The notes: generated by a model from the sequence alone, not told the origin. A stretch of DNA of 38,523 nucleotides from an uncultured Candidatus Saccharibacteria bacterium (GCA_964502535.1 CAZCWY010000001.1:1-38523), one strand, 5' to 3'; positions 884 through 34,951 are shown, counted from the stretch's first letter. Made by a program: numbers and translations.

Positions 884-889
884 ATTATA
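884..889 (-). promoter_or_regulatory. -10 box TATAAT for rpsL
   Basis: Minus strand reads TTGTATAATacgaaccATG, a 7-nt gap to the rpsL ATG. It lies in the 25-nt rpoC-rpsL spacer, and no SD is present. Confidence 0.5.
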
Positions 890-901
890 CAACAAAATCA
901 A

Positions 902-3900
902 TTAAAGTTTAATCTCTTCGAGATTATTCATATCTGTAAGAATTGCTGTATCTCCGGAAGGTATTCTTCTTCCAATGATTACATTCTCTTTCATACCTCT
1001 TAAGAAGTCTGTTTTACCTAATATTGCACTATTAGTCAATACTCTTACCTGCTCTTGGAATGACATTGCAGAAAGGAAACTCTCTGTATACAAAGCAGAT
1101 GCTTTTATTCCAAGTAATTTTGGAGATACTAAAGCTTTTCTCTTACTATCTGCAAGTAATAGATTATTCTTTACTTCAGATATAAATCTGTTTACCATTG
1201 AACCTACAAGATACTCTGTGTCTCCTGTTTCTAATACTCTTCCTAATCTTGCCATCTGTCTAATTATTACCTCAACATGGATATCATCTATTGATACAGC
1301 CTGCTCATTAAATACTTTCTGAACTTGATCAAGAATATATTTTTGAGCAACTAGTAAACCAGCTATATCTGCAAGTTTCTTAGGATCAACTGCACCTGCA
1401 ACTAACTGAGTACCTGCTTCAATCTTATCGCCGTCATTTACTAATATCTCAACATTTGGAAGAACAGACATACTCTCTTCTGCTTTCATGGAGCCAATTA
1501 ATGTTAGTATTCCTCCCTCAATCTTTGCAACTGCATCAAATGGAGACTGTTTTTCCATACCTTCAGTATCAATGTATATAACCTGACCAGCTTTAACTTG
1601 AGCTCCATCTGTTACTAATACACTCTTTGCATCTGATATTACTATCTCTTTTTCCATTTTTCTTTCACCAACAATTAGTAAGGTTGCGGAGTCATCTTCT
1701 GCTCTTTCAATATGGACCTTTCCACTTACTGTAGCGATATCTGCTTCTGCTTTAGGAGATCTTGCTTCAAATAGCTCTTCGATTCTTGGTAATCCCTGCG
1801 TAATATCTGTTGTTTGAACTCCTCCCTTATGGAATGTCTGCATAGTCATCTGTGTTCCTGGTTCACCAATAGACTGAGCTGCAATAACTCCAACTGCTTT
1901 ACCCATTTCTATCTCATCTCCATTTTCGAGATTTAATCCATAACATTTTCTACACATTCCTAGAGGTGATTTACATAGGATTGGGGTTCTTACATTAACC
2001 TCTTCTATTCCTTCGTTAATAATTTTCTCAGCAACTTCTTTTGTAATATGTCCATTCTTAGATACAAGAATCTCTCCCTTTGAATCTAAAATGTCTTTTG
2101 CCGCTACTCTCCCAAATATCCTCTTTTCATAGCTCATTCTTCTATCATCTCCTTTTCTGATTATTAATCCCTCTCCCTCGTATCCACAATCCTCTAATCT
2201 AACAATTACATCATGAGCAACATCTACTAACTTTCTAGTTAAATATCCTGAAGATGATGTTCTAAGAGATCTATCAGCAATACCTTTTCTTCCACCATTA
2301 GCAGCAACAAAATACTCAAATGCATTTAGTCCATCTCTATAGTTACCTTTAATTGGAAGTGGAATAGAGTTACCTCTAGAATCCTTAACAATACCCTTGA
2401 TGGTAAGTACCTGTCTTGCCTGAATCTTACCTCCATTGGCTTTAGATTCAACCATTTCGAATACTGAATTGTTTTTATCTAACTTACCCCAAGCTTCCTC
2501 TGCTAAATCTGATGCAAAATCATTCCACATTTCTGTAGAGATATTTATCTTTTCTTTCTCTGTTATGAGACCTTGAAGATAGTTATCTTGCAATTGAAGG
2601 TCTTTCTCTTCAACCTCCTTAATCTTTGTTTTAACATCAAAATTAACCTTACAATCTTCCATTCCAAATGAAAATCCTAAATCTGTGGCATATTTGAAAC
2701 CCATATCTTTAAGATTATCTAAAAGTTCTACAACTACCTCTAATGAATATTTATCTTTAATATCTTCGACGATTTGAGATATGGTTCCACCACTTACTCT
2801 TTCGTTAACAAACTTATATCCTTCAGGAAGAATACTGTTAAATATTGCCCTTCCTACAGAAGTACTAACTACTTCTCCATTAATCATGATGAGAATCTCT
2901 TCACTAATATTTATTACCTCTCTCTCATATGCCTTAATTGCTAAATCAACAGATCCAAAGATTCTTGGTTTCTCAACTTCATTCTTGTCTGTCATAAGGT
3001 AGAAACCTAAGAGCATATCCTTAGATGGTATTGCTAAGACTTCTCCATTGGAGATATTAACAATATTTTTAGATGCCATAATGTCTCTTTTTGCCTCTTC
3101 TAATGCCTCTACTGTAAGCAAAAGATGAACAGACATCTGGTCTCCATCAAAGTCAGCGTTAAATGCTTTACATACTAATGGATGTAACCTAATAGCTTCT
3201 CCTTCTACTAACTTAGGATAGAAGGCTTGAATACTGTATTTATGTAAAGTAGGAGCACGATTAAGTAATACAGGTTTACCCTCTATTACCTTCTCAAGTA
3301 TGTCCCAAATAATATCTTCCTCTTCTTCTATCATGTCTTTTGCAACCCTTACATTAGGAGCTAACTCTTGATCTAATAGATCATGAATAACGAATGGTTT
3401 AAACATTTCTAATAGAACAGACTTAGGAATACCACATTGATCTAATTTAAGACTTGGGTCTCCTACAATTACAGCACGACCTGAGTAATCTACTCTCTTT
3501 CCTAAAAGATTCTTTCTAAATATTCCCTTCTTACCCCTTAAATCATCTGTTAGTGATTGATATGGCAATCTCTTGCTATTCATCATAGGTTTAGATGGCC
3601 TATGTGAGTTATCAATTACTGCATCAACCGACTCCTGTAACATTCTCTTCTCATTTCGCAAAATAACATCAGGAGCTCCAATTTCAATCAATCTAGCTAA
3701 TCTATTGTTTCTATTAATAATTCTTCTATACAAATCATTAAGATCAGAAGTAGCAAACTTACCTCCCGGTAAAGGAATAATTGGTCTTAACTCTGGTGGT
3801 AATACAGGAAGTATTTCAATTACCATCCAACTTGGATCTATTCCATTAATATTAAATCCTTCTAAATATTGAATTCTTCTTATAGATGCTAACTTCTTAT

Positions 3901-4819
3901 CACCTTTCTCTTTCTTAACATCTTTTCTTAGTTGTGCTAACTCTGCATCAATATCTAAATTCTGAAGTAACTTTTTAATAGCCTCTGCACCCATCATTGC
4001 ATTAAAGAAGAGTAAACCTCTATCCTCAAGATCAATATATTCATCTTCTGAAAGAACAGAACCAACATCAACCTTTTCAATAACCTGTTGAAGCTTAGAA
4101 TAGAAAGTATCAAACTCCTCTTCTCTCTCTGCAAAATCTTTTCTTACTTTTGCAACTCCCTGCTTCTTCTTGTGCTCTAATTGACTCATCTTGAAATCTT
4201 TTCCTTCCTTGTCTTTCTTAGCTTGCTTAATATCAGCATCATACATAGCCTCTGTAACTTTTAATTCCTCTTCTAACTCCTGTTTTAAACTCTCAATATC
4301 ACTCTTTTTACTACCTTCTAATTTAGAAAGCATTTCCTTTCTTTTCTCTGCTTCAATCTCTACTACCATATACCTTGTGTAATATATGACAGAAAGAAGT
4401 TTTTTATGAGACATATTTAAAACAATAGACATCTTGTTAGGGATACCGTATGCAAACCAAACATGTGCAACAGGTACTGATAACTTTATGTGACCCATTC
4501 TCTCTCTTCTTACATCTTTTGTAGTTACCTCTACACCACATTTATCACATACTATTCCCTTATATCTAATCTTTTTGTATTTACCACAGTAACATTCATA
4601 GTTTTTAGTAGGACCAAATATCTTCTCACAGAAAAGACCATCTGGCTCAGCTCTAAATGTTCTATAGTTAATAGTTTCTGCTTTTGTAACTTCTCCATAT
4701 GACCAATCTAATACCTGCTCAGGTGAGGCCAATGTAAGTCTTATTGCATCAAAATTCTCAAAAGAATCTTTATAATAGTGACTACTATTGCTATTGTGAT
4801 TATGGTTGTTATTATTCAT
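902..4819 (-). CDS. rpoC: DNA-directed RNA polymerase subunit beta'
   Basis: Zn-finger CYCGKYKKIRYKGIVCDKCGVEV, catalytic NADFDGDQMSVH, trigger loop TMQTFHKGGV...DITQGLPRIEELFEAR. AGGAGG (4829-4834 on the minus strand) sits 9 nt upstream of the ATG. The start overlaps the rpoB stop by 8 nt (ATGAATAA). Confidence 0.98.
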   Translation of the reverse strand: MNNNNHNHNSNSSHYYKDSFENFDAIRLTLASPEQVLDWSYGEVTKAETINYRTFRAEPDGLFCEKIFGPTKNYECYCGKYKKIRYKGIVCDKCGVEVTTKDVRRERMGHIKLSVPVAHVWFAYGIPNKMSIVLNMSHKKLLSVIYYTRYMVVEIEAEKRKEMLSKLEGSKKSDIESLKQELEEELKVTEAMYDADIKQAKKDKEGKDFKMSQLEHKKKQGVAKVRKDFAEREEEFDTFYSKLQQVIEKVDVGSVLSEDEYIDLEDRGLLFFNAMMGAEAIKKLLQNLDIDAELAQLRKDVKKEKGDKKLASIRRIQYLEGFNINGIDPSWMVIEILPVLPPELRPIIPLPGGKFATSDLNDLYRRIINRNNRLARLIEIGAPDVILRNEKRMLQESVDAVIDNSHRPSKPMMNSKRLPYQSLTDDLRGKKGIFRKNLLGKRVDYSGRAVIVGDPSLKLDQCGIPKSVLLEMFKPFVIHDLLDQELAPNVRVAKDMIEEEEDIIWDILEKVIEGKPVLLNRAPTLHKYSIQAFYPKLVEGEAIRLHPLVCKAFNADFDGDQMSVHLLLTVEALEEAKRDIMASKNIVNISNGEVLAIPSKDMLLGFYLMTDKNEVEKPRIFGSVDLAIKAYEREVINISEEILIMINGEVVSTSVGRAIFNSILPEGYKFVNERVSGGTISQIVEDIKDKYSLEVVVELLDNLKDMGFKYATDLGFSFGMEDCKVNFDVKTKIKEVEEKDLQLQDNYLQGLITEKEKINISTEMWNDFASDLAEEAWGKLDKNNSVFEMVESKANGGKIQARQVLTIKGIVKDSRGNSIPLPIKGNYRDGLNAFEYFVAANGGRKGIADRSLRTSSSGYLTRKLVDVAHDVIVRLEDCGYEGEGLIIRKGDDRRMSYEKRIFGRVAAKDILDSKGEILVSKNGHITKEVAEKIINEGIEEVNVRTPILCKSPLGMCRKCYGLNLENGDEIEMGKAVGVIAAQSIGEPGTQMTMQTFHKGGVQTTDITQGLPRIEELFEARSPKAEADIATVSGKVHIERAEDDSATLLIVGERKMEKEIVISDAKSVLVTDGAQVKAGQVIYIDTEGMEKQSPFDAVAKIEGGILTLIGSMKAEESMSVLPNVEILVNDGDKIEAGTQLVAGAVDPKKLADIAGLLVAQKYILDQVQKVFNEQAVSIDDIHVEVIIRQMARLGRVLETGDTEYLVGSMVNRFISEVKNNLLLADSKRKALVSPKLLGIKASALYTESFLSAMSFQEQVRVLTNSAILGKTDFLRGMKENVIIGRRIPSGDTAILTDMNNLEEIKL

Positions 4820-34496: not shown

Positions 34497-34679
34497 CTAT
34501 CTAATCTTTGCTAGTGGCTTTTTTCTTTTTAATTTGTACTCATCGGAAACTGTTAAGAATTTTCTGCCTTTAGCTATTCTTCTTTTTAAAACTTTCTGAC
34601 CGTTAGAATCTTTGTTCCTGGCCATAAATCCGAATTTTCTAAGTCTCTTTAAATTTTTTGGTTGATATGTTCTTTTCAT
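34497..34679 (-). CDS. rpmH: 50S ribosomal protein L34 (with C-terminal extension)
   Basis: [44 protein letters not shown] is canonical L34. It is followed by 16 extra residues. Confidence 0.93.
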
Positions 34680-34850
34680 ATTTGTTTATTATGATGCGGG
34701 TCTATTATATATTACCTTATACCTTTATGGCAAATATTATTTTAATATTCTTTAGGAAGAGAATTTCGGTATACATATATCCCTAGTAGACACCATCCCT
34801 TGTATTAAAATAGCTCATATCTTATACGTTTTTTAGCCTTTTGTAAAATC

Positions 34851-34859
34851 TTATCCACA
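34851..34859 (+). promoter_or_regulatory. perfect DnaA box TTATCCACA upstream of dnaA
   Basis: Exact 9-mer in the rpmH-dnaA spacer, 93 nt upstream of the dnaA ATG. Confidence 0.7.
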
Positions 34860-34951
34860 TCTTTAGAAAAATTAATATAATAGGAGTGTTAGTCCCAATC
34901 GACCATGACTGCCCCTAGTTTTATTTATTTTGGTTCTACTTTATATTAAGT

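Follow-up and report, generated by a model that had tools for sequence, protein, structure and literature searches.

Several bacterial groups with leaderless transcription have been described. In the "group C" genomes of GeneMarkS-2, a Pribnow box is located 6-8 nucleotides (nt) before the starts of first genes, and 25-50% of the transcripts are leaderless (Lomsadze 2018, PMC6028130). Leaderless-rich genomes are known in Mycobacterium, Streptomyces, Corynebacterium and Deinococcus-Thermus (PMC6028130; Cortes 2013, PMC3898074; de Groot 2014, PMC4007540). The group C genomes using genetic code 11 are nearly all high in GC, and the low-GC members are Mycoplasma with code 4 (MetaGeneMark-2 preprint). 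TG-extended -10 signals of the leaderless type were also reported in low-GC Lactococcus and in Mycoplasma, in a dataset without candidate phyla (Zheng 2011, PMC3160421). Here we describe TATAAT-like boxes, many of them in the extended form TGnTATAAT, which lie a few nucleotides upstream of start codons in a 38,523-nt stretch of DNA (GCA_964502535.1, CAZCWY010000001.1:1-38523; the window) and throughout the genome to which it belongs. The window is contig C1 of a metagenome-assembled genome (MAG) of 619 kb, 69 contigs and 32% GC, from an ultra-small uncultured bacterium. Its nearest RNase J loci, most of them from anaerobic digesters, belong to Candidatus Dojkabacteria (WS6, Patescibacteria), which identifies the lineage. 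Mycobacteria, Deinococcus, Lactococcus and Mycoplasma are known to use the mechanism, and no report of it was found for this phylum: literature searches on leaderless mRNAs or Shine-Dalgarno (SD) sequences in the Candidate Phyla Radiation (CPR), Patescibacteria and Saccharibacteria gave incidental mentions only. No dataset of transcription start sites (TSSs) was found for this lineage, and the sole CPR set found, that of N. lyticus, was inferred from coverage.

Genes were called by our own rule based on open reading frames (ORFs), taking the first ATG, which gave 596 ORFs. Those divergent from their neighbor or preceded by a same-strand gap of at least 40 nt were regarded as operon-first (n = 285). 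A canonical box was defined as TAnnnT with at most one mismatch to TATAAT, and the gap in nt from box to start codon was denoted d. A box at d=4-9 (class A) was present in 87 of the 285 operon-first genes, corresponding to 30.5% when compared to a positional background of about 11% (P = 6e-19), and the most frequent distance was d=6 (30/87). The background-corrected share of leaderless-type genes was 22-26%. The same box preceded 3.0% of internal in-frame ATG codons (n = 2051). The first-pass annotation, made from the window sequence, had claimed such a box for nearly every gene opening a transcription unit; this was loosely true in the window, where the definition of these genes is partly circular, but not genome-wide, where only about 22-31% of operon-first genes were of this type. 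Independently of gene calls, the 627 TATAAT sites on both strands were followed by the ATG of an ORF of at least 80 aa in 12, 18, 11 and 8 cases at d=5, 6, 7 and 8, respectively, while other distances gave about 2-3 ORF-opening ATGs per position. The distance profiles of the reverse-complement motif and two permuted motifs were flat. The enrichment expected for TGnTATAAT was also seen, as 18 of its 65 sites had the ATG of an ORF of at least 80 aa at d=5-8. When the identical pipeline was applied to 200 kb of E. coli K-12, the -10 box was found at 3% versus 3% background and SD at 35-48% versus 3-5%, indicating that the pipeline detects SD where present and creates no false promoter peak.

The boxes had the properties of promoters. 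TG at positions -15/-14 accompanied 31% of the boxes at d=4-9 and 24% of those at d=25-31, a second preferred distance described below, versus 5.3% among all matches in the genome and 7-10% for boxes at the other distances upstream. A -35-like signal with 16-18 nt spacing was weak genome-wide (at least 4/6 TTGACA matches in 28-33% of promoters versus 10-21% at control offsets), so that the earlier remark that no -35 hexamer was obvious was a fair one. Leaderless translation is expected to require AUG, and the codons opening ORFs at d=5-8 after TATAAT were ATG in 49 cases, GTG in 6 and TTG in none. Position -1 of class A genes was a pyrimidine in 79%, with the A of ATG as +1, in line with the Y-R start-site rule. 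In a survey of 49 bacteria, TSSs centered on a point 7 bp past the -10 element (PMC12641261), so that d=6 puts +1 on the A of ATG. The median divergent spacer was 96 nt here, 93 nt and 85 nt in two other Patescibacteria (G015 and G043, respectively), 197 nt in an SD-type Patescibacteria genome (G062) and 222 nt in E. coli; in the present genome 13 divergent ATG pairs were no more than 60 nt apart, several of them 21-34 nt. Start regions of every class were less structured than internal 40-mers. The TG extension, the pyrimidine at -1, the near-exclusive use of ATG, the short divergent spacers and the retention of box and spacing in 16 relatives strongly supported that the boxes were promoters and not ribosome sites.

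This arrangement resembles group C in the Pribnow box near the starts of operon-first genes, in the AUG starts and in the leaderless share, which at 22-26% corrected or 30.5% raw is at the low end of the 25-50% range. It differs in its GC content of 32% and in the full TGnTATAAT motif, whereas group C is mostly high-GC with a degenerate TANNNT, and also in that the remaining genes lack SD, while those of group C use it. Lactococcus/Streptococcus and Mycoplasma share with it the low GC, the strong TG-extended -10 near the start and the weak or absent -35; Mycoplasma moreover has a reduced genome and many "atypical" leadered genes without SD. They belong to other phyla, however, Lactococcus being otherwise SD-heavy and Mycoplasma using code 4.

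The geometry was retained among relatives. TGrTATAAT stood 5-9 nt before the ATG of rnj in 16 of 17 sequences (the window and 16 orthologs with 68-93% protein identity), and persisted even where the other upstream DNA was unrelated. The rnj-ftsA spacer of about 30 nt contained TGnTATAAT in 16/16 relatives (TGATATACT in one), followed by 7-9 variable nt and a conserved ATG-ATA-AAA-CTG-CC. The box of valS was also kept in relatives. A conserved distance from -10 to ATG across a spacer of variable sequence points to selection on the leaderless geometry itself. The orthologs confirmed the start codons that had been chosen for rnj (27398) and the ftsA-like gene (29127), and supported two further choices. 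For ftsK, position 8428 was favored over the longest-ORF ATG at 8368, as the extension contained stops in five relatives and most alignments began at residues 14-22; for the MraY/WecA paralog, position 15444 was favored over 15405, as stops occurred in the longer N-terminus of several relatives and homology began mostly near 15444. The proposed metG start at 23328 follows from promoter position only: were transcription to begin about 7 bp past the box, the first AUG would be that at 23328, preceded by a leader of about 6 nt. The ORF after the ftsA-like gene opens with TTG at 30371, and an SD site (GGGAGG) lies inside that extension; ATG 30386, located 2 nt past the ftsA-like stop, is likely the true start rather than 30371.

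Seven further Patescibacteria genomes were profiled in the same way, over 400 kb each. A peak at d=4-9 was present in six of them, each with P < 1e-5: G015 of the same family (34% GC, 27% versus 9% background), G027 of the same order (45% GC, 18% versus 6%), G143 of the same class (32% GC, 21% versus 10%), and three from other families, namely G043 (f9, 36% GC, 29% versus 7%), G061 (f26, 46% GC, 11% versus 5%) and G077 (f38, 63% GC, 6% versus 1%), the last two with some SD. The seventh, G062 (f27, 37% GC), showed no -10 peak (4% versus 8%) and a clear SD peak at d=5-8. The start-proximal -10 architecture is therefore widespread in the phylum but varies between lineages. The result for G062 also indicated that AT-richness does not generate the architecture, and that the initiation mode switches between lineages of the phylum.

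A second promoter class, missed by the first-pass annotation, was found farther upstream. The box peaked again at d=25-31 (class B) in 22% of operon-first genes versus 10-11% background (P ~1e-8), and class B accounted for about 13-22% of operon-first genes. The 65 TGnTATAAT sites were bimodal with respect to the ORF ATG, with 18 at d=4-9, 5 at d=10-14, 0 at d=15-24 and 10 at d=25-31. The predicted class B leaders were about 20-24 nt long, AT-rich and without SD.

Boxes also occurred within strings of same-strand genes, where we read them as internal promoters. The gaps before box-bearing short-gap genes clustered at 13-39 nt, while for short-gap genes without a box the median was 4 nt and the gaps peaked at -4, -1, +1 and +2; such tightly packed downstream genes most plausibly start by termination-reinitiation. 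Five genes that had been taken as unit-openers, namely rpsL, the rodZ-like gene, dnaG, the envelope cluster and the ftsA-like gene, each lie 20-31 nt behind the previous gene on the same strand, which makes their boxes internal promoters in gene strings; the rpsL box is within the 25-nt rpoC-rpsL spacer. Same-strand gaps also piled up genome-wide at 16-18 nt (9, 14 and 7 genes versus 1-5 in adjacent bins). These spacers consist of TAA-n-T-T followed by AT-rich sequence, with neither a canonical -10 nor SD, as at 33002-33018 upstream of the jag/khpB-like gene, whose start is 33001 on the minus strand. G015 showed the preference too, and G143 did so weakly; it was not seen in E. coli or in Patescibacteria farther away. 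It could reflect either a -10-like TAAnTT that overlaps the stop codon, giving a leader of about 6-7 nt, or a preferred distance for reinitiation.

SD motifs were at background level in both first and internal genes. Four-nucleotide SD cores at d=4-12 were found in 4% of first genes versus 4% background and in 7% of internal genes versus 9% background. GGAGG or AGGAG at -18 to -4 was detected in 12 of 562 genes, and a control segment gave 4. The 12 comprised the three examples in the window and others, including operon-first genes such as rpsU (encoding bS21) and hup. A strict rule that SD sites belong to internal genes, as had been proposed, was rejected by these counts. The unusual element here is that the non-leaderless genes do not revert to SD. 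A four-domain homolog of ribosomal protein S1 (about 414 aa) was encoded here and in 30 of 31 relatives, ruling out the loss of S1 as the cause of SD-independence. The 16S rRNA of 11 relatives (same genus, four same-family genera and order relatives) ended in ...GAATTACCTCCTTTC, and thus the anti-SD CCUCC, the state of which had been raised with the first-pass annotation, was intact in these organisms. At all 11 of these 16S loci, AAGGAG came within 1-3 nt after the 3' end CCTCCTTT(C/T). This sequence complements the anti-SD, with which it could base-pair in the precursor rRNA. The presence of AAGGAG just past the 16S 3' end is common in other bacteria too.

The rpsU gene is located outside the window (contig C3:13770-13970, minus strand) and has a strong SD, GAAGGAGGT, that follows a class B promoter located 28 nt upstream (TGATATAAT). 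In 14/14 metagenomic relatives this promoter was kept, with a variable spacer sequence. The strong SD was present in 9 of 15 sequences including that of this genome, and absent from six, one of them the closest relative (97% protein identity). In Bacteroidia, the anti-SD is occluded by bS21, bS18 and bS6, and rpsU is autoregulated; the arrangement seen here resembles this autoregulation with a sequestered anti-SD. Further likenesses to Bacteroidia (group B) are the anti-SD intact in relatives' 16S, the strong depletion of SD, the AT-rich and unstructured leaders, and rpsU as one of very few genes with a long SD. Unlike in Bacteroidia, the rpsU SD is not universally conserved here, and unlike in group B no A-rich ribosome-binding motif was found at a fixed distance at all genes, the dominant upstream motif being a promoter with two preferred distances.

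From the observed geometry, statistics, conservation and SD depletion, we infer the position of the TSS and the mode of ribosome loading as follows. The boxes would serve as extended -10 promoters for sigma-70 (TGnTATAAT), the -35 being weak or absent, and RNA polymerase would start on, or within 1-2 nt of, the A of ATG. The resulting leaderless mRNAs would presumably be translated through SD-independent binding of ribosomes to the 5'-terminal AUG. RpoD encoded in the window (20707-21792) contains the Pfam domains Sigma70_r1_1, r1_2, r2, r3 and r4, consistent with a housekeeping sigma factor that includes region 3, the part contacting TG. Judging from sequence, class A promoters probably yield leaderless or near-leaderless mRNAs. 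Three modes of initiation may thus operate: leaderless units, at roughly one quarter to one third of the operon-first genes, together with many compact internal promoters in same-strand spacers of 13-39 nt; units with the same promoter 25-31 nt upstream, whose leaders of about 20-24 nt would be AT-rich, poorly structured and SD-less; and downstream genes with gaps of -4 to +5 nt, most likely translated by termination-reinitiation. SD pairing would be used at only about 2% of genes despite the intact anti-SD in the relatives' 16S. The core of the first-pass annotation, with transcripts starting on the AUG or adjacent to it, was strongly supported by position, TG, start context, ATG use, spacers and conservation, but did not stand as a near-universal rule.

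Several observations weigh against this interpretation. About half of the operon-first genes fell in neither promoter class under the motif definition used, and 17-18% of short-gap genes carried a box versus 5% background, which a pure operon-first model does not predict. Three boxes in the window were weak, namely CATAAT of rpoD and rpmH and GATACT of the pilN-like gene, and the dnaA box is poorly spaced at d=4, a distance found for 6 of the 87 class A boxes genome-wide. The TSS positions were inferred from spacing rules, the gene calls came from our own ORF rule and not from a trained gene finder, and the anti-SD was read from the 16S of relatives instead of that of the MAG, which carries no 16S gene.

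The boxes might be real but secondary or internal promoters, with most protein made from longer leadered or polycistronic transcripts and leaderless mRNAs as a minor species. Read-through is plausible for the many boxes 13-39 nt behind a same-strand gene, among them those of rpsL, the rodZ-like gene, dnaG, the envelope cluster and the ftsA-like gene in the window. The divergent pairs with spacers of 21-34 nt, however, have no same-strand gene upstream from which read-through could come, and a -10-to-ATG spacing kept at 5-9 nt while the spacer sequence varies, as well as the exclusivity of ATG at class A starts, count against leaderless mRNAs being minor. We consider this explanation improbable. 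It is more doubtful still that the TATAAT-like element is an AU-rich, S1-dependent mRNA enhancer or non-SD ribosome site in the style of group B. The four-domain S1 homolog, the near absence of SD and the boxes before 17-18% of short-gap genes would suit such an element, but it leaves unexplained why TG is enriched sixfold exactly at both distance peaks, why the motif also favors a distance of 25-31 nt, and why tightly coupled genes lack it (median gap of 4 nt for the short-gap genes without a box). The pyrimidine at -1 with A at +1, the weak -35 at 17 nt spacing and the exact conservation of TGnTATAAT across relatives also fit a promoter better than an enhancer. A functionless by-product of AT-rich intergenic DNA and stop codons, suggested by the 32% GC and by TAnnnT occurring in about 33% of any 6-position upstream window, was refuted by the sharp peak at d=6 (P 1e-19 to 1e-20), the flat reverse-complement and permuted motifs and the absence of a peak in G062 (which together rule out an AT-richness artefact), the conservation across relatives, and the finding that overlap with stop codons (TAA inside TATAAT at short gaps) explains at most 2/39 short-gap cases.

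Extended -10 promoters abutting the AUG bear on annotation, because start codons in CPR/Patescibacteria MAGs are mostly assigned by SD-weighted gene finders. As SD does not exceed background and between a quarter and a third of the units have a promoter-abutting ATG, starts are expected to be systematically miscalled; the window starts prone to this are those of ftsK (8368 versus 8428), the MraY/WecA paralog (15405 versus 15444), rnj, the ftsA-like gene and the gene downstream of it (30371 versus 30386). The rule of TGnTATAAT, 5-8 nt and ATG offers a compact, ready-to-use signal for expression now that genetics is emerging in Patescibacteria, and accounts for part of the gene packing, divergent spacers being about half as long as in the SD-type relative. 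The known range of leaderless-rich bacteria is thereby widened to include a phylum that is very large and uncultured, a point relevant to the question of whether leaderless initiation is an ancestral trait or has been derived repeatedly where genomes are reduced. A broader proposal would hold that Dojkabacteria and many other Patescibacteria initiate essentially independently of SD, through leaderless mRNAs, AU-rich leaders of about 20-24 nt and reinitiation, with leader lengths of about 8-17 nt forbidden, the anti-SD possibly occluded as in Bacteroidia and the rpsU SD acting as an autoregulatory sensor. We put this forward as speculation that is unlikely to hold; if true, the default route of initiation on the reduced ribosomes of CPR bacteria would be a non-canonical one, either retained or reached by convergence.

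Table 1. Promoter boxes and SD sites near start codons in the window, in order of position.
Feature	Coordinates	Strand	Element	Position relative to start codon	Pfam match
rpsL (S12)	884-892	-	TGtTATAAT, extended -10	7 nt to ATG 876	Ribosom_S12_S23
rpoC SD	4829-4834	-	AGGAGG	9 nt to ATG 4819, which overlaps rpoB end
ftsK	8415-8420	+	TATACT	7 nt to ATG 8428	FtsK domains
rodZ-like	10642-10650	+	TGATATACT, extended -10	8 nt to ATG 10659	HTH_25, RodZ_C
dnaG	11603-11611	+	TGGTATAAT, extended -10	5 nt to ATG 11617	primase domains
envelope gene cluster	14980-14988	+	TGGTATAAT, extended -10	6 nt to ATG 14995
PEGA-domain gene	16680-16685	+	TATAAT	8 nt to ATG 16694	PEGA
Zn-ribbon/rpoD divergent spacer	20680-20706		27 nt; -10 boxes overlap on opposite strands
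Zn-ribbon gene	20687-20695	-	TGGTATAAT	7 nt to ATG 20679
rpoD	20694-20699	+	CATAAT, weak; overlaps Zn-ribbon box	7 nt to ATG 20707
pilO-like SD	22684-22689	-	AAGGAG	before ATG 22673	PilO
pilN-like	23238-23243	-	GATACT, weak non-canonical candidate	5 nt to ATG 23232
metG	23306-23314	+	TGATATAAT, extended -10	1 nt to ATG 23316, 13 nt to ATG 23328
valS	27329-27337	-	TGATATAAT, extended -10	12 nt to ATG 27316; predicted leader ~5-6 nt
rnj	27384-27392	+	TGATATAAT, extended -10	5 nt to ATG 27398
ftsA-like	29110-29118	+	TGATATAAT, extended -10	8 nt to ATG 29127; in 31-nt rnj-ftsA spacer
ftsA-downstream gene SD	30373-30378	+	GGGAGG	7 nt to ATG 30386
rnpA	34489-34494	-	TATACT	5 nt to ATG 34483	Ribonuclease_P
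rpmH region	34688-34709	-	CATAAT 34688-34693, weak; TATAAT 34704-34709, canonical	8 nt and 24 nt, respectively, to ATG 34679
dnaA	34942-34947	+	TATATT, -10-like	4 nt to ATG 34952; marginal spacing

Re-reading of the sequence located all 14 of the -10-like hexamers first listed, with their gaps to ATG, and all three SD sites (rpoC, pilO-like and ftsA-downstream) at the positions in Table 1. Eleven of the 14 boxes were canonical (rpsL, ftsK, rodZ-like, dnaG, envelope cluster, PEGA, Zn-ribbon, rnj, ftsA-like, rnpA and dnaA), eight of them TG-extended. The Zn-ribbon/rpoD spacer holds both boxes and leaves no space for leaders. The pilN-like GATACT is uncertain as a -10 because it does not conform to TAnnnT, and the assignment of the rpmH box to CATAAT or TATAAT is ambiguous.

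Pfam profile matches to the window proteins bore out the gene names given at first. The ribosomal and RNA polymerase proteins were S7, S12, RpoC and RpoB. The others were FtsK, RodZ-like, DnaG, a methyltransferase, RsmA, MraY/WecA-family, the PEGA protein, the DUF4012 fusion, PilO-like, MetG, ValS, RNase J, FtsA/PilM-like, Jag/KhpB-like, YidC, YidD, RnpA, DnaA and DnaN. The rpmH-dnaA spacer (34680-34951) is 272 nt long and gene-free, and occupies the classical position of a replication origin.

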